Below are positions 7,805-50,716 of a DNA stretch of 64,000 nt, piece after piece. How positions within the stretch are numbered: position 1 is the first letter of the stretch; each line of letters begins with the position of its first letter. The notes beneath the pieces were generated by a model. It had not been told where the DNA came from and searched no databases. It saw nothing but the letters and a program-made list of their open reading frames with translations. The DNA lies in sequence record OL631257.1. The stretch is one strand, 5' to 3'. Origin of the DNA: Escherichia phage ECCR664. Position numbers and translations under genes: made by a program.

Positions 7805-10800
7805 ATGGCTACATTAAAACAGATACAATTTAAAAGAAGCAAAGTAGCAGGAGTTAATCCTACTGCAGCACAATTAGCCGAAGGCGAATTAGCGATAAAC
7901 TTAAAAGATCGAACTCTTTTACTAAAGACGACCTCGGTAATATTATTAGCCTAGGCTTTGCTAAGGGCGGGGATATTAACGGTAATGTAACTCAAAATGG
8001 AGATTATTTACAGAACGGTACATATAATCTCAATGGAAATCAGTTTGTTTATGCAGGAAAATATATTGAATTTTTACCTAAAACTGCAGGCAATGGTGCT
8101 TGGGCAAATCAACATCTAAATAAAGCTCCTATCTTTACAGATTTGAGTTCAACTACTTCTGTTTCAGAATATCATCCACTGATTAAACAACGCTATAAAG
8201 ATGGAACTTTTTCTGTTGGTACGTTAGTAAACGAAGGAAGTTTTAAAATTCATTTTATGAATGAATCTGGTGATTCGAAATATTGGACGTTTCGCCGTGA
8301 CGGTGGATTTACTGTTGATGGTGGAGGTTTAGCAGTATCAGGAGGTAGTATAACTACATCTGGAAATATTGCAGCTCTCGGAAATATTACTTCGCCTCAG
8401 ATTAATACTAAAAATATTATTTTAGACACAAAAGCATTTGGACAATACGATTCGCAATCATTAGTTCAATATGTTTATCCTGGAACAGGCGAAGAAAATG
8501 GTGTAAACTATCTTCGTAAAGTTCGCGCTAAATCAGGCGGAACTATTTACCATGAAATCGCTTCAGCTCAAACTGGTAAGAATGATGAAATTTCTTGGTG
8601 GACCGGAAATACACTTACTACTAAATTAATGGGTCTTCGTAATGATGGCGCAATGGTATTACGTCGTTCACTTGCTATTGGCACAATTACTGCTGACGAA
8701 AATACTAACAACTATGGCTCTCCTACTCCAATGGGAGAAAGATATATTGCTTTGGGCGATGCTGCAACTGGTTTAAAATATATTAAGCAAGGCGTTTATG
8801 ATTTAGTAGGTAATTGGAATTCTGTTGCTTCTATTACTCCTGATAGTTTCCGTAGTACTCGTAAAGCATTATTTGGACGCTCAGAAGACCAAGGCGGAAC
8901 CTGGACAATGCCTGGAACCAACGCCGCGCTTTTATCGGTTCAAACCCAGGCTGATACAAACAATGCAGGTGATGGTCAAACCCACATTGGATATAATTCT
9001 GGCGGTAAATTTTCCCATTATTTCCGTGGTACAGGTCAGATGAATATCAATACCCAACAAGGTATGGAAATTAACCCGGGTATTTTGAAATTGGTAACCG
9101 GTGCAAATAATGTGATGTTTTATGCTGATGGCGGTATTACATCCACTAAGCAGCTTTCAATATATAATGGTGTATATTTAGCAGCTAATAATTCTACTGC
9201 CGGGCTAACATTCGCTCCAACTACTACAGTTGATGGCACTAAGCAAATTTTGTGGGAAGGTGGTACTCGTGCTGGGCAGAATAAAAGCTACGTAACTGTT
9301 AAAGCATGGGGTAATTCATTTAACGCATCCGGCGATCGTACTCGTGAAACAGTTTTTGAAGTAGCTGACGGGCAGGGATATTATTTTTATTCTCAGCGCA
9401 TAGCTCCAACCGGTTCAGAAACTGTGGGACCTGTTGTAACCCAGTTCAATGGACAAGTTAATGCTAGAGGAGCATTATCACCGATGGAAGTCTTAGAGTT
9501 AATGGATTAAGTGCATTATCCGGACAAGTTACTATGGATAACGGGCTTGTTTTATCCGGTGGTGGTTCTATTACCGGTCAAGTTAAAATCGGTAATACCG
9601 CAGATGCTTTCCGTATTTACAATGCTGAATATGGAGCTATTTTCCGTCGTTCTGAAGCGTCTTTGCATATTATACCTACACTTAAAGATGCAGGTGAAAG
9701 TGGTGGTATTTCTAACCTTCGCCCATTGAGTGTTTCTCTTAACAACGGTATGGTTCAAATGCGCCATTCTGTTACGTTAGGTGATGATGGTGCTGGCGGT
9801 AATATGGTGACCGTTGATAATGATAATAAACTTGTTGTTATAACTAGTCATAGTCGCATTTCTCCTAATTACCGTATGCAATTAGGACAATCGGCATATA
9901 TCGACGCTGAATGTACTGATACTGCACGACCTGCTGGAGCCGGTTCTTTTGCTTCACAAAATAATGAAAACGTTCGTGCTCCGTTCTATATGAATATTGA
10001 TAGAACAGATACAAGCACTTATGTTCCTATTGTGAAACAAAGATACGTTCAAAATAATAGTTGCTATTCTATTGGTACTTTAATTAATGGTGGTAACTTT
10101 AGAGTTCATTATCACGAAGGTGGTGACGGCGTTTCTACTGGTGCTGTTATAAAGGATCTTGGATGGGAATTTAATAAAAACGGTGATTTTTATTCTCCTG
10201 GTAAATTAGGCGCTGGTAATGTTCGTATTGGTACTGATGGTAATATCACTGGTGGTTCTGGTAATTTTGCTAACTTGAATACCACAATAAATAACCTTAA
10301 GACGGATATTGTCTCGAGTTACCCAATTGGTGCTCCGATTCCTTGGCCTACTGATACACCTCCTGAAGGCTATGCCATAATGGAAGGTCAAACATTTGAT
10401 GCTGGCTTGTATCCTAAGTTAGCTGCAGTGTATCCTTCCGGCACTCTGCCTGATATGCGTGGTCAAACTATCAAGGGTAAACCATCTGGGCGTGCTGTAT
10501 TAAGTACAGAAGCAGACGGTGTTAAGTCACATAGCCATAGTGCAAGTGCATCAAGCACGGATTTGGGTACTAAGACCACATCAAGCTTTGACTATGGTAC
10601 TAAGACGACAAGTAGTTTCGACTATGGTACTAAGACCAGTAATAATACTGGTGCTCATACGCATAGTTTGAGCGGTTCCACAAACACCGCCGGTGCGCAC
10701 AGCCACACAAGCGCTCTTTATGCGGGAAGTAACAACGCTCCTGGTATTGGTTCTATAAGAGGATCCGCCGGTGGTGGTAATACGCTTGGAACTTCTTCTT

Positions 10801-22806: not shown

Positions 22807-23907
22807 TTACGCTGTGAAGATTTTATCCCACATCGCAACAACTGCATCTCGGTTATACTTCTTCCATACTGCTTCAGCACGTTTAACTCGAGCTTCGTAT
22901 GTGTCAGTGAATTCTAATACAGCTTTTGTGTAAAGCGCAACTACTTCTTTCTTAGGAGTAGAAGAATCAATTTCTACACGCACAGTATCTGGGTCGTATT
23001 CGAATGTCGCATGCGGATAATCCTTAAAAACTAACTGGATTACAGGGACACCTTTAGAAATGGCTTCAATAGAACTATTCTCTACCGTACCCGTGTCAGG
23101 ACACGTATTGATAAGTGCTTTAGCTGTTTTAAGACGTTCCATGATTTCACTGTGTGGAGCATCAATAATAACAGGATATTTAGCTGGTGGTGCCCATTTG
23201 CTTGGACAATAACCAATACCATTTTCGCCTAGTGCTTTAATTGCTTCAAGAGCAACATCAGTGCGACGCATCTTAGTGTCATAACGTTGAGCACTAATAA
23301 TCAAATCAGTTGCCGGAAGAACTTCAGGTTTTTCATTCAAACAAATAACCGGGTAGTCATCAGGTTCAAATAATGGATTTTCACGCCAGTAGTCATAATC
23401 AATTTTGTCAGTAAGAGCTGAAGTCATATGACAATATTTACGTTCAAATTCACGGAATGCTTTAGTAGGAGCATAGCTCTTCCCACCGTTCTTGTGAATC
23501 TGGATAGTCTGATCCCAAATTTGAACAATACCACGAGACACCGGTTCAAACGGCGTAGCCATAAAATTCTTATGAACTTTAGAGAGTCCAGCATCTTTAA
23601 TTGCTTGGACGGTTAGTTTAGTCGGTTCCATAGTAACAACAAAATCGTATTCATGGATGCCGGCTAGTTCAACGATCTTACGAGCCATAGTATAACTCAT
23701 ACCTAGACTGAATTTAGTCAGATGACCAACAGGATGGTGTGTAACCTTCCAATCACCAAATGTGTCATTATCAAAACCAATATAATCAATATCAGCACCG
23801 ATGGACACAAGATATTTCAACACATTTAAATGTACTGCTTCAAGACCACCTTGTACACGTTCTGGGTTAAACGGGACTGCGCGAGATGGGATAAACATAA
23901 CTTTCAT
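22807..23907 (-). CDS. GT-B fold glycosyltransferase (candidate DNA hmC sugar transferase)
   Basis: Intact 366-aa ORF; C-terminal region GTVENSSIEAISKGVPVI fits the GT4/GT-B donor-binding motif E-x7-E ...G.PV(V/I); sits immediately after rIIA where T4 has rIIA.1/gene 60. Confidence 0.55.
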   Translation of the reverse strand: MKVMFIPSRAVPFNPERVQGGLEAVHLNVLKYLVSIGADIDYIGFDNDTFGDWKVTHHPVGHLTKFSLGMSYTMARKIVELAGIHEYDFVVTMEPTKLTVQAIKDAGLSKVHKNFMATPFEPVSRGIVQIWDQTIQIHKNGGKSYAPTKAFREFERKYCHMTSALTDKIDYDYWRENPLFEPDDYPVICLNEKPEVLPATDLIISAQRYDTKMRRTDVALEAIKALGENGIGYCPSKWAPPAKYPVIIDAPHSEIMERLKTAKALINTCPDTGTVENSSIEAISKGVPVIQLVFKDYPHATFEYDPDTVRVEIDSSTPKKEVVALYTKAVLEFTDTYEARVKRAEAVWKKYNRDAVVAMWDKIFTA

Positions 23908-41121: not shown

Positions 41122-42562
41122 TTAAAATTTTAACTCATTGGCTAAGCTATCTAGGTCAGCACGTGTTGCTTTGGCTTTACCTACGCGTTCCGTACGATTC
41201 ACCTCTGCCTGACGCATCTGAGCACCTGCGTTTTCATTTACTGTGTTAGGTGTGTTCATGCCTTCTTGCTCAATCTCAACCCATTTCTGATTGCCTTTAC
41301 GTACACCCATCAAGAACTTGTTCCACTTATTCTTATCACCATATCGTGATTTGATTTGTTTGATAAGTTGTTGTTCAGCTTGTGCAAGTTCTTCAGTTTC
41401 AATTACAGCCAACATGAAATCTGCCGTTGCTGGTAAACCTGCTGATTCTGCAATATCGCTCATGTTCATGTCTGAAGCATCCCATGCTGCACGTCCTACT
41501 TGAGCTGCAGTCCATAGAACTGTTTCAGATTCTACTGCTAATGCACGAAGTTCTTCTGCGATAGCTTTAACTAATGTGTAACTATTTTCAGTGTAAACTC
41601 TGATACGACAAGACCCACAAATACCTAAGTAATCGACTATAATTACAGACGGCACAAAGTTCTTCTTGAGTTTCAATTCATTAAGCAATGCACGGAATGT
41701 ATTAGCATTAGCTCCGCCAGTAGGATACTGTTTGACTACTAAACGTCCTAATGTGGATTTTGAACGCCATTTTTCCATCTTGGCTTTATATTCAGCATAA
41801 GATACGTTACCATCATCGATATCATCAAGTGATACGTCAAGCATGTTTGCATCTATACGCTTAGCACAAACTTCTTCAGCCATTTCCATGGAAATATAAA
41901 GAACATTATGTCCTGTTTGAAGATAATCTGCAGCAAGTGAACAAAGGCCTAAAGATTTACCAACGTTAACACCTGCCATTAAAACATTCAGTGTACCGGT
42001 TTCAGCACCACCTTTGGTGATTTTATTCAGAATGTTTAATTTGAACGGGACCTTACGTGCTTTATTTAGATAAGAAAGCCAGCGTGCTTCATAGTCTTCC
42101 ATCCAGTCATGACCAACATAACTATCAAACGAAATTGAAAGTGCTTGACGCATAATATCAGGAATAGCTCCTACGTCAGGCATTTTCTTGTTACGTTGTT
42201 CTGGAGGTAGTTCAGCATTAGACTGAATCTCAATGATTTTGGATGTAGCATTATACATCGCTTTTGCTGGACATATTTCTCAGTTTCTTTAACCAACCAT
42301 TCGTGGTCTTCAGGAGTGTCAGCCAATTTTTCAATTAGGTCTGAAGTTCCTTTATATTCGGCTTCAGTTAAAGAACTGTTATCTAAAGCCACCTTTAATG
42401 CATTGATAGATGGCATTGCATTATATTCGTTAACGTGGCTCTTTATAATTTTAAAGACATTTTTGCCGGTCCACGCTCAAAATACTCAGAATCCATATAA
42501 GGCCAGACCTTAGAAAAATAAGCCTGGTCGTATACGAGATGAGACAAAATAATTTCTACCAC
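41122..42562 (-). CDS. 41: gp41 replicative DNA helicase (DnaB-like; frameshifted near N-terminus)
   Basis: N-terminal VVEIILSHLVYDQAYFSKVWPYMDSEYFE.GPAK; 378-aa fragment with Walker A GVNVGKS and ...IIVDYLGICGSCRIRVY...; ends ...DSLANELKF as in T4. Confidence 0.85.
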
Positions 42563-42911
42563 GATAACTCCTTAAAAGAATTTAAATTTTTCTTGGTTCG
42601 TTCATTAAAAGCTTGTTGTACCTGCATTGTAACACATTTTTCAACATGTGGTGCAAGTTCTGCTTTTCTGTCCTGGTCAAGAACTGCAAAGTCCATTACG
42701 ATTTTACCATCAACCCAGTCTAGTTTTGTAATATAGACTATATGATGGGAACCGTCTTCAAGTGTAATCAGAATCTCTTGAATGACATTTTCCATTGCTG
42801 AACGGATAATTTTAAGAGATTCATTAAACACTCGTTCTTTGCGAATGTCTTCCCTTCCGAAGAAGGGGATTCATCAACGATTTCTAGATTTAAATCATCG
42901 AGATTATTCAT
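42556..42911 (-). CDS. 40: gp40 head vertex assembly chaperone (one frameshift)
   Basis: Starts MNNLDDLNLEIVDESPSSEGKTFAKNE then continues as ORF 42556-42831; position between uvsX and 41. Confidence 0.55.
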
Positions 42912-44074
42912 CGAAATCTTCCATTTCGTCAAGGTCGTTTTCAATATCTGCTGCAGACGGAGCATCAGAAGCTTTAACCGGAACTTTAGTTGTTGCTTTG
43001 CAATTAATAAGGTCGTTAACAGCGTCATCAACTTCTTTAATAGAAGAGATAGCACCTAGTTTATATTTAGTTTCAATTGCATCTCGGAAAGGTTTGTGTT
43101 TAAACAACGGCCCCCAGAATTCTACGCAATCAGTAGCTTTAGCACGCCATGATTTCTCTTCACGAATCATTTCACCTGTTTCTTCGTCAAGGAATTCACG
43201 AGCATACCAACCAGCTTTAGGTTTAACCACAAAACCAATTTCAGTTGCCATTTCTAACAAGCCACTGAATGGGTCAATACCGCCATCAAAATTAACCGTG
43301 ATTGGGAAAGTAGATTTCTCTTTAACTGTACGAGATTTTTCTGCTTTCAACGTGAAGTCATAACCGGTCAATTCTGTACCTTCTTTAACCTGACGTTTAG
43401 AGATAAAAATACTGTGTTAGCAGAATAAAGAATACCTGTACCACCGCCCATAATCTCTTTAGGATATAGTCCGCCGATTTCCATTGCTGTATGGTTGATT
43501 GCAACACATGGAATATCTTTAATAGTCAGATACGGGGTTACAATACGGAAAAGAGATTTAAGTGCCTTAGCACGAGACATATCACCTACGACTTTCTCGT
43601 TCAATGCATCTTCGGTTTCTTTCTTAGATGCAGTGTTACCGATTGAATCGATAAAGATAATAACTTTATCACCGCGTTCAATCGCGTCAAGCTGATTAGT
43701 CATATCAACTTTAAGTTGTTCGACGGACTGAATTGGTGTATGAACTACACGGTCTAAATCAACACCCATTGAACGGAAGTAAGATTCTGAAGCACCGAAT
43801 TCTGAGTCATAGAACAAACAGATTGCATCTTTATATTTCTTCATATACGCTGCAACCATAGTTAGTCCAAACAATGTTTTAAAATGTTTAGAAGGTGCAG
43901 CAAAATAGTCAAGCCTGATTGCAATCCTGCATTCAGAGCACCACCTAGTGCAATATTCAACATCGGAATACGAGTAGGGACTTCATCACGATTATTAAAC
44001 AGCTTAGACTTAGTCAAGTCTGCAGTCATTTTAGAAGTAGAAGCTTTAATCAGACGAGATTTTAAATCAGACAT
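42904..44074 (-). CDS. uvsX: UvsX recombinase (RecA-like; two frameshifts)
   Basis: Three consecutive fragments (43862-44074, 43368-43874, 42904-43371) giving ~390 codons; acidic C-terminus DLDEMEDFDE. Confidence 0.85.
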
Positions 44075-44173
44075 TGTATTTTTCCATAGGCATCATTATA
44101 TTTTACTCATGTTTAAAAGATAAGATGATTATATACTAAGAGTTATACAGCATTTAAAACTTTAAACAGGCTC

Positions 44174-44722
44174 TTAACGAGCCCATTTGATAATTTCTGT
44201 AATCAAATTATTACGTTCGCTTGCATTAAATCCTATAACTTTGTTAGCACCATCATGATTAAGTAATTGATACGTTTGGATTTTGTTATGAATTGCAAAC
44301 TCTTCAAAATGTGAAATGACTGTATTAAAACCGAATGAAGACAAAGTAATAAGATCGTCTTCAAAACTTTCAGTCATTTCGTTACGTGTTAAAATAATTG
44401 TGAACACATCATGGTTTTGGCAAAGACGAATATAATCCTGTTCATAAACGTCAAGAACCGAGTCCGCATCTTGTCGAATACGTCCATAAACCCAGTTACT
44501 AATATATCCACGGTCTAACAGATAAATCTTAGTAGGGTCTAAATAATTCAACATCGTTTCGAAACAGCCAACTTCATTTCGAGACTTAACATCGAAACGT
44601 CCATCAACTGTTCGTTTAGGGAAATCAATCTTTACATATCTTTCACTAATTTCCATTATGTCATTAATGAAAGTTGTTTTACCAGCATTATCCGGTCCGT
44701 CTACTAAAATAATTTTAGCCAT
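44174..44722 (-). CDS. P-loop nucleotide kinase (thymidylate-kinase-like)
   Basis: Walker A VDGPDNAGKTT at N-terminus and LLDRGYISNWVYG (DR motif); occupies the site of beta-gt in T4. Confidence 0.55.
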   Translation of the reverse strand: MAKIILVDGPDNAGKTTFINDIMEISERYVKIDFPKRTVDGRFDVKSRNEVGCFETMLNYLDPTKIYLLDRGYISNWVYGRIRQDADSVLDVYEQDYIRLCQNHDVFTIILTRNEMTESFEDDLITLSSFGFNTVISHFEEFAIHNKIQTYQLLNHDGANKVIGFNASERNNLITEIIKWAR

Positions 44723-44723
44723 T

Positions 44724-45623
44724 TTATTCCTCGATTACGACATCTTCGTATTTAGGTATATTATACGGTGAAGAAATTAAAGCATTAAAGTAGATGAACT
44801 CACCAAGACCTGGATGGAATACTTCTTCAGGATTTTCGAAATATTGAATCTTCGGACGTCCTTTAAGAATTTGATAGTACTCAGTTTTAGTTGGATTAAA
44901 AATTCGAATCAGCGCTTCTTCGGGATACTTATTTCTGTCGAAACTATTATTTGGATCAGTTATATAAAGCGGTTGACCTAATTGAATTGCGCATTCAACC
45001 ACTTGTTCAAAACGATAGCATGGGTCACTAATTCGAAATGGATGAAAAATACCATCTAGATGAATAGGAGCCAAATCACCTACAAGACGCTGCATGACGG
45101 AAGGACGTATAACTTTCTGCGTTACGATAATCTTATTACCATCTGCACCTGCGTTAACCAGCACTTCTTTTTGACGTTCATTCAACACAGTAGTTTGAAG
45201 TGAACGATTAACCGACAACATATCGGTTTTTAAGAATTCGTCAATATAAAAACGTGGTTTATTAGGGTCTGCAGTGATATTGAAATTGAATTCCACATCA
45301 AAAGCGCCGTCATATCCGGTGATATCTGTGATTAGAAAATCACAATCATAATAAGCAATTAATGAATCAACCACAAATTCATTTTCAGACCAGAAATATT
45401 TACGAGTGTTATACGCGTTATCTTTATACCATAATGGAACAAACTTAAATTCTGGGAAAAGACGTTCACATTCTTTAATATCGGATGCATTACGTGGATA
45501 TGTAATCACATCACCTGGATTAGCACGGTGCAAATGAAGTTGGAAGTTGCCATCCTTAAGGATAGCATACTGTCCAGTTTCATAAGACCGCATACTCAAG
45601 ATTGGTACGCGGAAAATAGCCAT
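44724..45623 (-). CDS. Hypothetical protein (299 aa) in the gene-42 operon
   Basis: Intact ORF, tightly packed between the kinase and gene 42 (1-nt spacers/overlaps); no motif recognised. Confidence 0.4.
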   Translation of the reverse strand: MAIFRVPILSMRSYETGQYAILKDGNFQLHLHRANPGDVITYPRNASDIKECERLFPEFKFVPLWYKDNAYNTRKYFWSENEFVVDSLIAYYDCDFLITDITGYDGAFDVEFNFNITADPNKPRFYIDEFLKTDMLSVNRSLQTTVLNERQKEVLVNAGADGNKIIVTQKVIRPSVMQRLVGDLAPIHLDGIFHPFRISDPCYRFEQVVECAIQLGQPLYITDPNNSFDRNKYPEEALIRIFNPTKTEYYQILKGRPKIQYFENPEEVFHPGLGEFIYFNALISSPYNIPKYEDVVIEE

Positions 45624-46339
45624 TAGTCAAGGAATCCTTTAACATAATCAAAATCACGTTCAAACACATGGGCACTTACCATGGTATGAGTATAATCACC
45701 AACTTCTACACCACATTCGTTAGCGATATAATGAAGTAATTTTCCTTGGAGATAAAAATCCAACTGCATAACAACAGCACAGTTCTGAGAACGCATATGA
45801 CAGTGGGTATAAAGCTTACCATCACGAATATAATAAGTCACTGAGTCAGTACATGGATATTCAAGTGTTTCGTCCGAATCAAGCAAAGCCTGATCAGAAC
45901 TTTCTAGAATTTGGAACACAACTCTTCGAGAGTTAGGTTTCTCTTTAAGTTCTTTTAGAAGAGCTGGTAATTGGGCCACAATGCGAGGACCGTAGAAAGT
46001 GTTGAAGTTCGCCGGCAAAACATCTGATTTTGGTTTAGAAATAAATTTAGCGACATTAGGATATGCCTTAAACGCTTCTTCTGCGTTGGTACCACCAGAA
46101 ATCATAAACTTCCAGAAGTCTTCGGCATATTCATAAGAGATGCGGTTAATACGTGGGTCGGTCATTTTGAATGATGATGGAGTGTCAACAACTACTGTCA
46201 TGGACCCGATTTCATTACAACGTCCAATACGAGAATCAGTTACGAATTCGGGGTTTTCTAAAATTTCACGATTGACTGCTTTAAATGCGGCTTGAAAATC
46301 TGCGGCTTTGATATATTTCATTGTGTTATGTTTTCCCAT
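45623..46339 (-). CDS. 42: gp42 dCMP hydroxymethylase (thymidylate-synthase family)
   Basis: ...YPCTDSVTYYIRDGKLYTHCHMRSQNCAVVMQLDFYLQ... aligns with the T4 gp42 active-site region (CT..V.Y.IRD......MRS.D). Confidence 0.7.
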   Translation of the reverse strand: MGKHNTMKYIKAADFQAAFKAVNREILENPEFVTDSRIGRCNEIGSMTVVVDTPSSFKMTDPRINRISYEYAEDFWKFMISGGTNAEEAFKAYPNVAKFISKPKSDVLPANFNTFYGPRIVAQLPALLKELKEKPNSRRVVFQILESSDQALLDSDETLEYPCTDSVTYYIRDGKLYTHCHMRSQNCAVVMQLDFYLQGKLLHYIANECGVEVGDYTHTMVSAHVFERDFDYVKGFLD

Positions 46340-46621
46340 GTTTACCTCAATACAATTTATTATATACTCAATTCGTAAAGCTTATTTGAATTTCTTGGCA
46401 ATGTTGATATAACGTAAAGCTTCAGAATCTATACTTCCAAGAACACTATGAAGGAATGCATCAGTGTAGTATTCCAATTGAACAGGTTCTTTAATCACTT
46501 TAGCCGCTTTGGTTTCAAACAGGCCCATAAGGGCCTTTTAAGAATTTGTTCGTTAGTGTTCAGTTTTATAGTCAAAATCTCTTCATTAAGTTTATAATTA
46601 AAAGTTTTTCTAGAAATCATT

Positions 46622-47774
46622 CCGGGTACCTCAAAGCGTCATCAGAGTTAGTTATATCAATAATAGATATAGAGTTTTCTGATAACCCATTTTTAGATAA
46701 CTGACGTTTATAATATCTTTCACAATATGTACACGTCGTCCCGCAGATTTCATTAGCACAATCGAAATCTGGATGTCTGAACCACCTTTTTCTAAAAAGC
46801 CATCTAACAAAGAGGTTTCAATATTTACTGTATGTGAAAACTCAGTCTCATTTTCAAGAGTGAAAATAGTCTCTAAAGGCTTCCACAGTTCTAACAAATT
46901 ACCTTCAAACTTTTCAGAAGCGTATGCTTCAAGAACTTTCAAAATGTAGTCGGTGCTACCTGTACGTCCTGAAACTTTGAATTGAGTGATACCAATATCA
47001 TTATAAAGTTTCAAATCTTGAGGACGAACAAAACGAGTTCTCAACCAGTTAAATGGGTCTGTATCACGAGCTTTAATACAGTGCTGCATAGGATATCCGT
47101 TTAAGGATTTAGCATCATCAGCTGTAACATCAGTACTATGGAAAATATAGCAAGAGTCACGATAGCTACAATGTGTTGTATACCCTTTACCAGCATTAGA
47201 ACAGAACTCATTTACAAGAACTTCAAATATTATATTGTTCTTATTGCAAAACTCTGCTGCACGCTTCAGGAAAGAAACTGAACGGTTCTTATGAATTCCG
47301 CAGCAGACTTTTTTGATGTTATATTGGTCGTGCAAGTATTTGATTTGAGTTACAGCATCAACATGTAGAATTGTTGAAACTTCAATCTCAATGTCTTTAT
47401 TGACTTCACGAACAATTTCCATAACAACAGGGTTAGCGATAGTAATACGCCATACGCCTATTGACCAAAGATACTGAACATAATCCTGAATAGCTTTCTT
47501 CTTCCACTCAACTAGTTCTCTTTTGAACCAGGATTTATCGTGTTGAGTGTATAGTTAAAGCAAATACCTAATTCGTTACAACGTTTAACGTAGTCTTCTA
47601 ACATCTTTTGTCAACGTCAGGAAGCCTAAAATCAGGTCTGGCTGCTACAAAAGCCATTTCTCTTGTAGAACCATATACTTCGTTTATCAAGCTATTAGGA
47701 TAGGTTTTATTGAGCTCTACGATTTTATCAAGAAGAGCTAAATCAAAATTCGTTCCGATTTTAAAAGTATTCAT
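46622..47774 (-). CDS. Hypothetical protein (~380 aa, at least two frame breaks); Cys-rich C-terminal segment
   Basis: N-terminal MNTFKIGTNFDLALLDKIVELNK...; 256-aa fragment 46652-47422; an alternative frame near the 3' end encodes ...FDCANEICGTTCTYCERYYK (CxxxCxxC). Confidence 0.35.
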
Positions 47775-47828: not shown

Positions 47829-48230
47829 TTATAGATTCGGTTTATACGATTTAAATGTTTCGAATTCGCCTTTATTCATAAGAGCTTTGAATTCGTCAGG
47901 ACGCATAGCTTTGTCGTCGATAATCCAATCATATACTGGTTTATGTGTTAGCAAATTATGGTACTTCAAACCAATGTTTTCCAAGTTCTGAATCAGACTT
48001 GGGAGAATGTCAATTGCTATACGACCAGGACCTACCGACTTCATACCACGAGCCGTGTAAAGCGTTATGGTATGCCCTGCATCATACAGGGCATTAATGG
48101 CGGACACCATTTCGACGTCTGGTTTGAAGTTCACGTAATCACGATTGTTATTCCACTCTGTTATACAATCATCGACATCAAAACAAAGATTAAGCATGTT
48201 TTCTACACGGTGCATTAGATTCGTTCCCAT
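47829..48230 (-). CDS. HAD-superfamily phosphatase
   Basis: Motif I LCFDVDDCIT, motif II ...TLYTARG, motif IV WIIDDK; true start probably the internal Met MLNLCFDVDD. Confidence 0.55.
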   Translation of the reverse strand: MGTNLMHRVENMLNLCFDVDDCITEWNNNRDYVNFKPDVEMVSAINALYDAGHTITLYTARGMKSVGPGRIAIDILPSLIQNLENIGLKYHNLLTHKPVYDWIIDDKAMRPDEFKALMNKGEFETFKSYKPNL

Positions 48231-48285: not shown

Positions 48286-49104
48286 TTAGTACCCATTTAC
48301 CAGGATTTTTGTAATCAGAGTAGCCGTTACAGGTTCTGCTACGTCATAACTAATAGAGCCGTCCTGAAGTACACGGCCCATGTTACGTAATTGCTTAGTC
48401 AGAAGTTCCATGCCTTTATAATATGCGGCTACCGCTTTAAGTGGATTATTCTTGAAATAACCACCTAATGCAATCCAGATAATTGCTACTGCCAAATGAT
48501 GATACTCGTTAAACGAACTCATCTTTCCATATTTGTAAACTAGTGGATTGATGTTAATAGTCACATTACAAGTTGTTTCATCAATAATAAACTGGCCCCA
48601 GGTCGGATTAGCGTTGAATTCATCATAACCTGAAACAGCATAAAGCACTTTAGCTTCATCATACAATTTTGGCCCGTAAATCTTGGTTTCACCAAAATAT
48701 CCACGAGGGTCGATAAACTTGACTTCGCCGTTATCAGTAATCATGGTATTACTGAAGTTCGGGTCACCGTGAATAACAGAGTACTGTCCCTGAGAACGGT
48801 TATGATAACGAATAAGGTGTTCTAAAGCTTGTTTCAACATTGGCTTCAGACGTCCAATCTTAGTGTAGTTCACACGTGTGATTTTACCAAATGAATCAAT
48901 CAATGGTTGAATGCTTTCACAACGATCAATAACTTTCGTATAGAATTCTTTAGTGAAATCACGACGAACAGTTTCAGGACTTACAAAATAAGCGTCTGTG
49001 CTGAATTTCAGTGCATCTAAAATTGCATCAACAATTTGTGGACGAGCAAGACTTGATTTGGATTTAATATATTCAAATGCTGGCTTACCTTTAATACGTT
49101 CCAT
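48286..49104 (-). CDS. Kinase of the aminoglycoside-phosphotransferase / choline-kinase fold (putative sugar kinase)
   Basis: Brenner-type catalytic motif VIHGDPNFSNTMI followed by KFIDPRGYFGE. Confidence 0.55.
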   Translation of the reverse strand: MERIKGKPAFEYIKSKSSLARPQIVDAILDALKFSTDAYFVSPETVRRDFTKEFYTKVIDRCESIQPLIDSFGKITRVNYTKIGRLKPMLKQALEHLIRYHNRSQGQYSVIHGDPNFSNTMITDNGEVKFIDPRGYFGETKIYGPKLYDEAKVLYAVSGYDEFNANPTWGQFIIDETTCNVTININPLVYKYGKMSSFNEYHHLAVAIIWIALGGYFKNNPLKAVAAYYKGMELLTKQLRNMGRVLQDGSISYDVAEPVTATLITKILVNGY

Positions 49105-49130
49105 AATAAAGTGGCCGCCAGGATGATAAC

Positions 49131-49900
49131 TTACAATCCGTGGAACTGAATCTGATTTAACTTTCTTATACCAATTGACTTCATCTTTTGAAGTGCAACG
49201 CCCTGTTCTGTTAAAGCAATCTTTGTTACCGTTTCTTCGCCAATTTCAACTGCATTAAAACTACGATTAAGTTCACGAACTTCATGAGCTTTTTCAAGTT
49301 TAGGCATATCACCAAGGTCGATGATATTCATAAGCTCTGATTTATTGAATGCGCCGCTGTAAAGGAATTCTACAAAATCACGTCCTTTGCAGTATTCGTG
49401 AATTTCCTCATCAGTAGAACCCATGTAGAATTCCCAGTCTTTGAACTGATAAATTCCTACAACATTACCGCCTGTTGAACCTACGTTAGTGATATTTTCA
49501 CCATCGAAATTATATCGACATTCATCACCTTTAACATAGATTGCGTTAACATTCCAAGACCATGAACCAAAATCAGGAATAATATCACACCAGTTAACAA
49601 CTACGTTATGGCCGTCTAAATCTTTATGTAATTTAGCAAGAGCATAAGCAGAACCATACGCTTCATCAACTGTACGAATAGTCACATTGAACCCTTCTTG
49701 CTCACAATAAGCTCGAACGGTTTCAGCAAATTTTGAATGAACTACTACAATAATTTCATCTGCGCCAAGGTCAGAATAAATTGTGTACAAATTGCTCAGA
49801 ATAGTGTCTTGTTTATAGTTCACAAGAACTTTTGGAATATGGTGAGTAATTGGATATAAACGAGTTGCCAATCCAGCACCAAGAATAACAGCTTTTTCAT
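49131..49900 (-). CDS. Sugar-phosphate nucleotidyltransferase (frameshifted near N-terminus)
   Basis: After frame repair N-terminus reads MKKAVILGAGLATRLYPIT, the G-x-G-T-R-L-x-P-x-T nucleotidyltransferase signature; 246-aa fragment 49131-49871. Confidence 0.6.
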
Positions 49901-50085: not shown

Positions 50086-50716
50086 TGTTCGCCTCGTAAC
50101 ATGGCACCTAGTGCACCGCCAGGGTGGAACTTAAGGAAGTCATTAGAGGTAAATCCACGTTCAGACGAAAGGTTGATAGCGAACGTATCGATAAGCGCTA
50201 ACAACAATGTAGTGGACATTGTCGGAGCTAAAGAGTTCTCGTCGACTTCCACCGCGATACCGGTACAGAACGTATAATCAAAAGAGCTTCGTATTCTTGC
50301 GGAATGTCAGGGTTACAATGTAACAGAATCTGTTTAACCTGAGGACGAATCATACGAAGATGTTTAGCAACACCTATCATTTCTTCAGTCTTACCAGAAC
50401 GACTAATATGAATCAACACATCATTAGGCGCAATGAATCCTGCATCACCGTGAGAATAATGCCCGGTGTTCAAGTACATACTCGGGATACCGAGTGAAGC
50501 AAATGTCTCAGAAGCTTTAGTTGCGATATTAGCGTTCTTACCAACACCTGTAATAATTACACGACTTTCATAATTACTCAGTCCAGGGCGTCGAAGAGTT
50601 TCTAGAATAGCATTATAACGAGCAGGGTTTTGACTAATTACTTTAGCCATGGTGGCAAGAGATGAAGCTTGTTTTACGATTGCGTCAATAGCGATAGTGA
50701 TTGGTGTAGTTTTCAT
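50082..50716 (-). CDS. SIS-domain sugar-phosphate isomerase (KdsD/GutQ-like; one frameshift)
   Basis: ...ITGVGKNANIATKASETFASLGIPSMYLN...VLIHISRSGKTEEM and, after frame repair, C-terminal ...FHPGGALGAML. Confidence 0.6.

Follow-up and report, generated by a model that had tools for sequence, protein, structure and literature searches.

Two adjacent minus-strand genes of Escherichia phage ECCR664, in the 64,000-nucleotide (nt) stretch of sequence record OL631257.1 analysed here (the window), occupy the site at which phage T4 encodes its beta-glucosyltransferase. The gene at 44174..44722 encodes a 182 aa P-loop nucleotide kinase resembling thymidylate kinase (Tmk), and the gene at 44724..45623 a 299 aa predicted glycosyltransferase of the GT-B fold; both begin with ATG. 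We think it likely that they close a three-gene synthase–transferase–kinase core unit in the arabinosyl-5-hydroxycytosine system of RB69-type (Mosigvirus) phages. The kinase is the orthologue of RB69 gp45, and the 299 aa protein is the orthologue of RB69 gp46:47, DLP3 gp79 and Thanatos TH1_063 and the predicted first, base-proximal arabinosyltransferase. Both genes and their predicted roles have already been published for RB69 gp45 and gp46:47, so the observation is real and not new; the conserved gene trio, the gene fusions and the co-occurrence described below are our additions to the accessible literature.

Both open reading frames (ORFs) proposed in the initial annotation of this DNA are found on the minus strand in the ORF list, and the tight coupling ascribed to them is borne out. 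The stop codon of the upstream gene, which encodes a 238 aa thymidylate synthase (TS) homologue, overlaps the start of the 299 aa gene by one base (TAATG), and a single base separates the 299 aa stop from the kinase ATG (GAGGAATAAAATG), with GAGGAA just upstream of the kinase. Downstream of the pair lies uvsX. As the T4 record has the order uvsX, segA, beta-gt, 42, imm and 43, the beta-glucosyltransferase site is indeed the one occupied here, and T4 has no kinase gene between uvsX and gene 42.

Judged by its sequence, the window belongs to a Mosigvirus related to RB69 and HY126, and the region is 98.6% identical in nucleotides to deposited Mosigvirus genomes (for example SA79RD, JS09, ST0, O157 typing phage 3 and NicPhage). 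The kinase shares 98% aa identity with RB69p045 (gp45). The 299 aa gene aligns end to end with RB69p047 plus RB69p046 at about 98% nt identity, with a single 1 nt indel: an extra T in the RB69 RefSeq record NC_004928 (L006 3598-4498) divides the transferase into two ORFs there. The undivided product is 100% identical in several deposited Mosigvirus genomes, and neither ORF of the pair has an indel relative to close relatives. Further orthologues of gp45 and gp46:47 are known from HY126, Bas46/Bas47 and NicPhage (Lee et al., NAR 2026, PMC13326640). A preprint on transposon mutagenesis of phages, consulted on whether the genes are essential in Bas46, gives no results for individual genes of that phage. 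The window also carries the UDP-arabinose genes, namely a SIS-domain isomerase, a nucleotidyltransferase/kinase and a HAD-like phosphatase, several of them frameshifted, together with a second transferase. A role of both ORFs in a modified-nucleotide pathway, which the initial annotation had suggested, thus holds, as both are orthologous to published DNA-modification genes.

The chemistry of that pathway follows from the neighbouring gene (45623..46339, minus strand, 238 aa), which had been taken for gene 42, a deoxycytidine monophosphate (dCMP) hydroxymethylase, in a 5-hydroxymethylcytosine (hmC) synthesis operon. Neither name survives. The product matches Pfam Thymidylat_synt (1.3e-15) and, over its full 238 aa, PDB entries 9iqc and 9ir2 (E 2.9e-160); its identity to T4 gp42 is as low as 25%, and T4 dCMP hydroxymethylase is absent from its 60 best PDB sequence matches. 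In a MAFFT alignment with Escherichia coli ThyA and T4 gp42, it has Asn at ThyA position D169, where an orthologue of T4 gp42 would have Asp, Asp at N177 and Glu at L143. A BLASTP alignment to E. coli ThyA was set aside for this purpose, its gaps shifting the RS-x-N motif by one; the register was taken from the multiple alignment and the pairwise alignment with T4. Asn at D169 with Asp at N177 is the signature of flavin- and O2-dependent 5-hydroxy-dCMP synthases, and this activity has been shown experimentally for the RB69 orthologue, gp48 (PMC13326640). Because the neighbour bears this signature, we assign the operon to 5-hydroxycytosine rather than hmC, and, with the 9iqc match, to arabinosyl-5-hydroxycytosine. 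The PDB titles of 9iqc, 9ir2 and 9iqu read ‘Thymidylate synthase’ and that of 9iqw ‘Capsule biosynthesis protein’; three window proteins are near-identical to these recently solved structures and to the HY126 glycosyltransferase 9iqz/9ir0.

RB69 DNA contains mono- and di-arabinosyl-5-hydroxycytosine (PMC13326640), not the arabinosyl-hmC first proposed in 2018 (PMC6024577) in a paper that overlooked gp46:47 and proposed ORF003c as the sole transferase. The modification has been shown in virions of RB69 and of NicPhage, the latter 98.4% identical in nucleotides over the region (PMC13326640, PMC13390438), and the paper on the Durham collection gives the same reading for Mosigvirus NicPhage (PMC13390438). 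In RB69, the gp1-type deoxynucleoside monophosphate (dNMP) kinase gp159 converts 5-hydroxy-dCMP to its diphosphate, and expression of just two enzymes, the synthase and the gp1-type kinase, is enough for 5-hydroxydeoxycytidine to enter DNA. Synthesis of UDP-arabinofuranose is predicted to involve gp51, gp52:53 and gp55, and the HY126 counterparts AfhF (gp51) and AfhE (gp52:53) have been shown to serve it. Lee et al. name gp46:47 ‘arabinosyltransferase 1’ and gp45 ‘nucleotide kinase’ (Tmk fold, not discussed further), both as predictions (PMC13326640).

The initial annotation found no recognisable motifs in the 299 aa protein, and it does lack any match in Pfam, in NCBIfam or in a profile search of PDB sequences; in PHROGs it matches an unnamed family alone. 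The structure prediction that had been suggested as a check was the sole route to a fold assignment. The model consists of two Rossmann-like domains flanking a cleft and resembles solved GT-B enzymes, its matches being sucrose-phosphate synthase 6kih (score 17.3), BshA (16.7), HepE (16.2), PimA (16.0), the 366 aa transferase of HY126, 9iqz (14.2), and T4 alpha-glucosyltransferase (13.0); T4 beta-glucosyltransferase is not among the 60 best. Invariant positions of the family include R197, D200, K246, H270-P-G272 and E/D275. Neither a Pfam Glycos_transf_1 match nor a complete GT4 E-x7-E motif is present, and the predicted structure makes the protein a GT-B enzyme that is GT4-like in fold and not a GT4 member by sequence. 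The best structural matches are, in the CAZy classification, retaining enzymes of GT4/GT5 type. Such a likeness would fit the reported alpha linkage of the arabinose next to the base, provided that the alpha-anomer serves as donor. The family is uniformly acidic, with a median isoelectric point (pI) of 5.14; the window protein has a pI of 5.05 and a net charge of -11, and T4 beta-glucosyltransferase a pI of 9.05. A PDB sequence search returned no solved structure of the 299 aa transferase or of the kinase.

For the 182 aa protein, the proposed resemblance to thymidylate kinase is upheld by its fold and by its PHROG family, which is thymidylate kinase. The motifs on which the proposal relied are present (ILVDGPDNAGKTTF and YLLDRGYISN), and the fold comes with a P-loop and the FP-x-R and D-R-x-Y motifs that bind the nucleoside monophosphate (NMP). 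The family retains the P-loop, has invariant FP-K-R and D-R-G-Y motifs of Tmk type, and possesses a further invariant block, F-x-D-D-L-I, that is peculiar to it. Curated Tmk thresholds are not reached: TIGR00041 requires 83.25 bits and gives 16.5, and PF02223 gave no match at E <=0.1. A phmmer search of the PDB with the kinase returned chance P-loop matches only.

The distribution of these genes bears on their roles. Members of the 299 aa family are encoded in 348 phage records, among them Thanatos and phages of Klebsiella, Serratia, Yersinia and Proteus; the 366 aa transferase occurs in 211, nearly all from Mosigvirus-type Escherichia/Shigella phages and Acinetobacter phages. Thanatos DNA is mono-arabinosylated and that phage has only the 299 aa type of transferase, whereas RB69 and DLP3 carry two or three arabinoses (PMC13326640). 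This wider spread and the presence in mono-arabinosylated Thanatos favour the 299 aa protein as the universal and most likely the first transferase. The initial annotation had offered ‘a second transferase or a pathway enzyme’: a transferase in a DNA-modification pathway it would be, although not the second, which is encoded about 21 kb away by a 366 aa ORF (22807..23907, minus strand), the orthologue of RB69 gp3/ORF003c, predicted to add the second arabinose. That ORF matches 9iqz and 9ir0 (‘phage HY126 glycosyltransferase’) over its full length (E 6.6e-250).

Records with the kinase number 343 among phages, their taxon breakdown being almost that of the transferase, and among the matches listed the kinase gene adjoins the transferase gene. 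Thanatos keeps the order synthase–transferase–kinase, as do four very distant metagenomic contigs (122-356 kb), whose transferases are 36-46% identical to ours and whose kinases, in the two contigs compared, are about 31% identical. All three of the TS genes from these contigs that were aligned have Asn at D169. In two contigs, a Flavodoxin_2 gene (NAD(P)H-dependent FMN reductase-like) lies directly upstream of the TS homologue (L005 4739-5293; L007 3715-4275); its position next to a D169N synthase, aligned for L005, fits the reported flavin dependence of the hydroxylase.

When 1.84 billion representatives were searched with a profile, the transferase family proved to have only 229 members there, nine of which are fused to a kinase domain: eight in the order transferase–kinase and one in the reverse order (P0241, P0254, P0258, P0260, P0263, P0268, P0281, P0285 and P0286). 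Another eight are fusions of a HAD domain with the transferase (P0167, P0174, P0178, P0179, P0194, P0208, P0227 and P0246). The fusion proteins mostly come from short contigs of 1.8-4.5 kb, and no Thymidylat_synt gene was found in the 11 kb examined of the 33 kb fusion contig L011. All the kinase domains in the fusions have the P-loop in common with the kinase family, and most have R-x-[YF]-[IVL]-S-D-x-V-Y as well; they nevertheless resemble the family only weakly (hhalign E 3e-3 to 3e-5; Pfam Thymidylate_kin under the cut-off). On account of the conserved trio, the fusions and the co-occurrence, we regard the kinase as functionally tied to the transferase and not merely adjacent to it.

In the model that we favour, the TS-fold enzyme would hydroxylate dCMP at C5, using flavin and O2, whilst the isomerase, the kinase/uridylyltransferase and the HAD phosphatase would supply UDP-arabinofuranose. 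The 299 aa protein, presumably a retaining GT-B enzyme, would transfer the first arabinofuranose from this donor to 5-hydroxycytosine at its 5-hydroxyl; this alpha-linked sugar would be the one nearest the base, and the 366 aa transferase would add the second. The 182 aa protein would be an ATP-dependent (d)NMP kinase of Tmk fold, acting on a 5-substituted dCMP, whether 5-hydroxy-dCMP or the arabinosylated form, and supplying the diphosphate to the replication pool. Several observations weigh against these assignments. The individual DLP3 transferases, including the homologue gp79, did not arabinosylate 5-hydroxycytosine DNA, and a second kinase would seem superfluous, as gp159 already makes the diphosphate of 5-hydroxy-dCMP (PMC13326640). 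The GT4 E-x7-E motif is half conserved in the transferase family, E/D275 being kept and E267 not, and the accessible literature yielded no biochemical activity for this transferase or this kinase. Purified TH1_063, the syntenic Thanatos homologue (47.5% identical), formed UDP-xylose from xylose 1-phosphate and UTP, as detected by liquid chromatography–tandem mass spectrometry (Brandt et al.).

The most serious alternative, which we hold to be possible though not probable, concerns the level at which the first sugar is added. Lee et al. cannot tell first arabinosylation on the mononucleotide from that on DNA, and the inactivity of the single DLP3 transferases on 5-hydroxycytosine DNA suits the former option, which those authors leave open (PMC13326640). 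In such a pre-replicative scheme the 299 aa enzyme makes arabinosyl-5-hydroxy-dCMP, the Tmk-like kinase phosphorylates it, the polymerase incorporates the arabinosylated dCTP, and DNA itself is the acceptor of the second sugar alone. The trio might then, with the same modest likelihood, be a mononucleotide assembly line running from dCMP through 5-hydroxy-dCMP and arabinosyl-5-hydroxy-dCMP to the diphosphate. This would be, as far as we know, the first DNA modification system to glycosylate a nucleotide before replication. The scheme would explain a second NMP kinase beside the gp1 homologue, since the general gp1-type kinase may refuse the bulky arabinosylated nucleotide; and sucrose-phosphate synthase, the best structural match of the transferase, uses a small phosphorylated acceptor. 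The trio conserved from Mosigvirus to the large environmental contigs, the fusions in both orders, the co-occurrence of transferase and kinase, and the acidity of a family so unlike the DNA-binding T4 beta-glucosyltransferase are compatible with addition of the first arabinose to the mononucleotide, and are no proof of it. Against this, the characterized phage DNA glycosylations (T-even alpha- and beta-glucosyltransferases, DLP3 gp76/77) are all post-replicative and act on DNA, and synthase and gp1-type kinase alone suffice to bring 5-hydroxydeoxycytidine into DNA. The evidence from pI and fusion is, moreover, indirect, as nucleotide enzymes of T4 form complexes without shared substrates, and the fused kinase domains resemble the window kinase only weakly.

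That the 182 aa protein is an ordinary thymidylate kinase, turning dTMP into dTDP with no specific tie to cytosine modification, is unlikely in our judgement. The fold, the PHROG family and the RefSeq name of RB69p045 speak for it, whereas the TIGR00041 score far below cut-off, the lack of a Pfam Thymidylate_kin match, the absence of a kinase from the T4 locus, the linkage to the transferase in near-equal numbers of records from like taxa and the fusions in some phages speak against it. The T4 gp1-type dNMP kinase handles dTMP, and by this analogy the gp1-type kinase would be expected to do so here as well. Less probable still is a reading of the 299 aa protein as a UDP-pentose pyrophosphorylase and not a transferase. 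Besides the UDP-xylose result, it would account for the failure of TH1_063 to transfer xylose to plasmid DNA, dCMP, dCTP or cytosine (Brandt et al.). None of these acceptors has a 5-hydroxyl, however, which makes the negative result uninformative, and the text of Brandt et al. does not exclude contamination by a host uridylyltransferase. An NTP_transferase domain is also encoded next door, its HY126 counterpart makes UDP-arabinose (PMC13326640), and the GT-B fold makes pyrophosphorylase an improbable primary function.

Sequence signals around the three genes could delimit a shared transcript. A predicted T4-type middle-promoter-like site (GCTT, 13 nt, TATAAT; 46359..46381, minus strand), read by eye, lies upstream of the synthase gene; the record of the relative SA79RD has a middle promoter annotated there. 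A weak hairpin with a T-rich tail (GGGCTC-GTTAA-GAGCCT, then GTTTAAAGTTTT) lies over the kinase stop codon (44152..44184, minus strand); it is annotated in SA79RD as a rho-independent terminator and is possibly the end of the three-gene transcript. These assignments draw on the T4 middle-promoter consensus and the relative's annotation: a generic consensus scan did not call the terminator, and a generic sigma-70 promoter scan found promoter-like counts at shuffle level.

The remaining pathway genes of the window, all on the minus strand, lie upstream of the trio. A HAD-like phosphatase (47829..48230; RB69 gp51, HY126 AfhF, PMC13326640) matches PDB 9iqw (E 4.1e-87) and 1xpj. The bifunctional sugar-1-phosphate nucleotidyltransferase/sugar kinase (48286..49871; RB69 gp52:53, HY126 AfhE), a single 561 aa gene in SA79RD, is split here into two ORFs, the one at 49131-49871 matching NTP_transferase (1.6e-6) and the one at 48286-49104 giving weak APH-type kinase matches. 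The SIS-domain arabinose-5-phosphate isomerase (50228..50716; RB69 gp55, Pfam SIS 9.7e-7) is 3′-truncated here, with a homopolymer deletion at 50280; RB69p055 is annotated as arabinose 5-phosphate isomerase.

A further gene, the broken orthologue of RB69 gp50 (46652..47774, minus strand; L006 5493-6662 in RB69), lies about 300 nt upstream of the 5-hydroxy-dCMP synthase. It belongs to the Peptidase_U32 family (1.3e-5 for a 256 aa fragment; 7.4e-11 for intact RB69 gp50). On the unrelated 33 kb contig L011, a kinase–transferase fusion and a HAD gene of KdsC type are followed by a U32-like gene (8179-9276). Among U32 proteins are the C5 hydroxylases RlhA, TrhP and UbiU/V, which work independently of O2, and the gene could therefore allow 5-hydroxycytosine to be made anaerobically. 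For RB69 gp50, the label given by Lee et al. is ‘sugar or heterocycle reductase’ (PMC13326640).

Relative to a Mosigvirus of 97-98% identity, the segment 38254-50280 shows recurrent 1 nt deletions, nearly all in A/T homopolymer runs (for example at 42262, 42852, 43408, 43902, 46787, 47521, 47606, 47774, 48306, 49893 and 50280). They break uvsX, which appears as three ORFs (42904-44074), gp41, the U32-like gene (at 46787, 47521, 47606 and 47774), the nucleotidyltransferase/kinase, the arabinose-5-phosphate isomerase and the DNA polymerase. We rejected the idea that uvsX and the others are pseudogenes, nearly all of the indels being 1 nt losses in A/T runs; the broken genes look like the product of homopolymer under-calling in sequencing.

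RB69-type cytosine modification is already on record as a means of evading restriction, CRISPR and glycosylase defences. Three labels that persist widely among deposited Mosigvirus genomes call for correction. In the RB69 RefSeq record, gp48 is ‘similar to dCMP hydroxymethylase’, gp51 ‘phosphoheptose isomerase’ and RB69p045 ‘thymidylate kinase’; the synthase goes by ‘thymidylate synthase’ or ‘dCMP hydroxymethylase’ in many records of Mosigvirus. We suggest that in Mosigvirus genomes these last two labels be replaced by 5-hydroxy-dCMP synthase, ‘thymidylate kinase’ by modification-linked, Tmk-like nucleotide kinase, and ‘hypothetical protein’, for the 299 aa product, by predicted first arabinosyltransferase. 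The kinase also offers a specific, testable handle on the acceptor of the first sugar, DNA or nucleotide; were the acceptor a nucleotide, this kinase would be an enzyme that accepts a glycosylated nucleotide.

Among known systems, the closest is that of RB69. Its gp45 and gp46:47 are the same genes as those described here, and its cluster shares the position between uvsX and the 5-hydroxy-dCMP synthase, the UDP-arabinose neighbours and the fold matches to 6kih and thymidylate kinases; nothing of substance differs, save that the transferase ORF is intact in the window and divided in the RB69 record. The kinase shares the P-loop NMP-kinase fold with thymidylate kinases (Thermus 5x7j, vaccinia 2v54) and with the T4 gp1 dNMP kinase, and its FP-x-R and D-R-x-Y motifs occupy the NMP-binding positions of Tmk. 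GT4-type GT-B enzymes such as 6kih, BshA, PimA and WaaG are only 7-12% identical to the 299 aa protein, which is much shorter than they are. The alpha- and beta-glucosyltransferases of T4 have no detectable sequence similarity to it and exceed it in length by 50-100 residues. They act on DNA, with hmC as acceptor and UDP-glucose as donor, whereas for the 299 aa enzyme the DNA acceptor is a prediction, as are 5-hydroxycytosine and UDP-arabinofuranose as its substrates.

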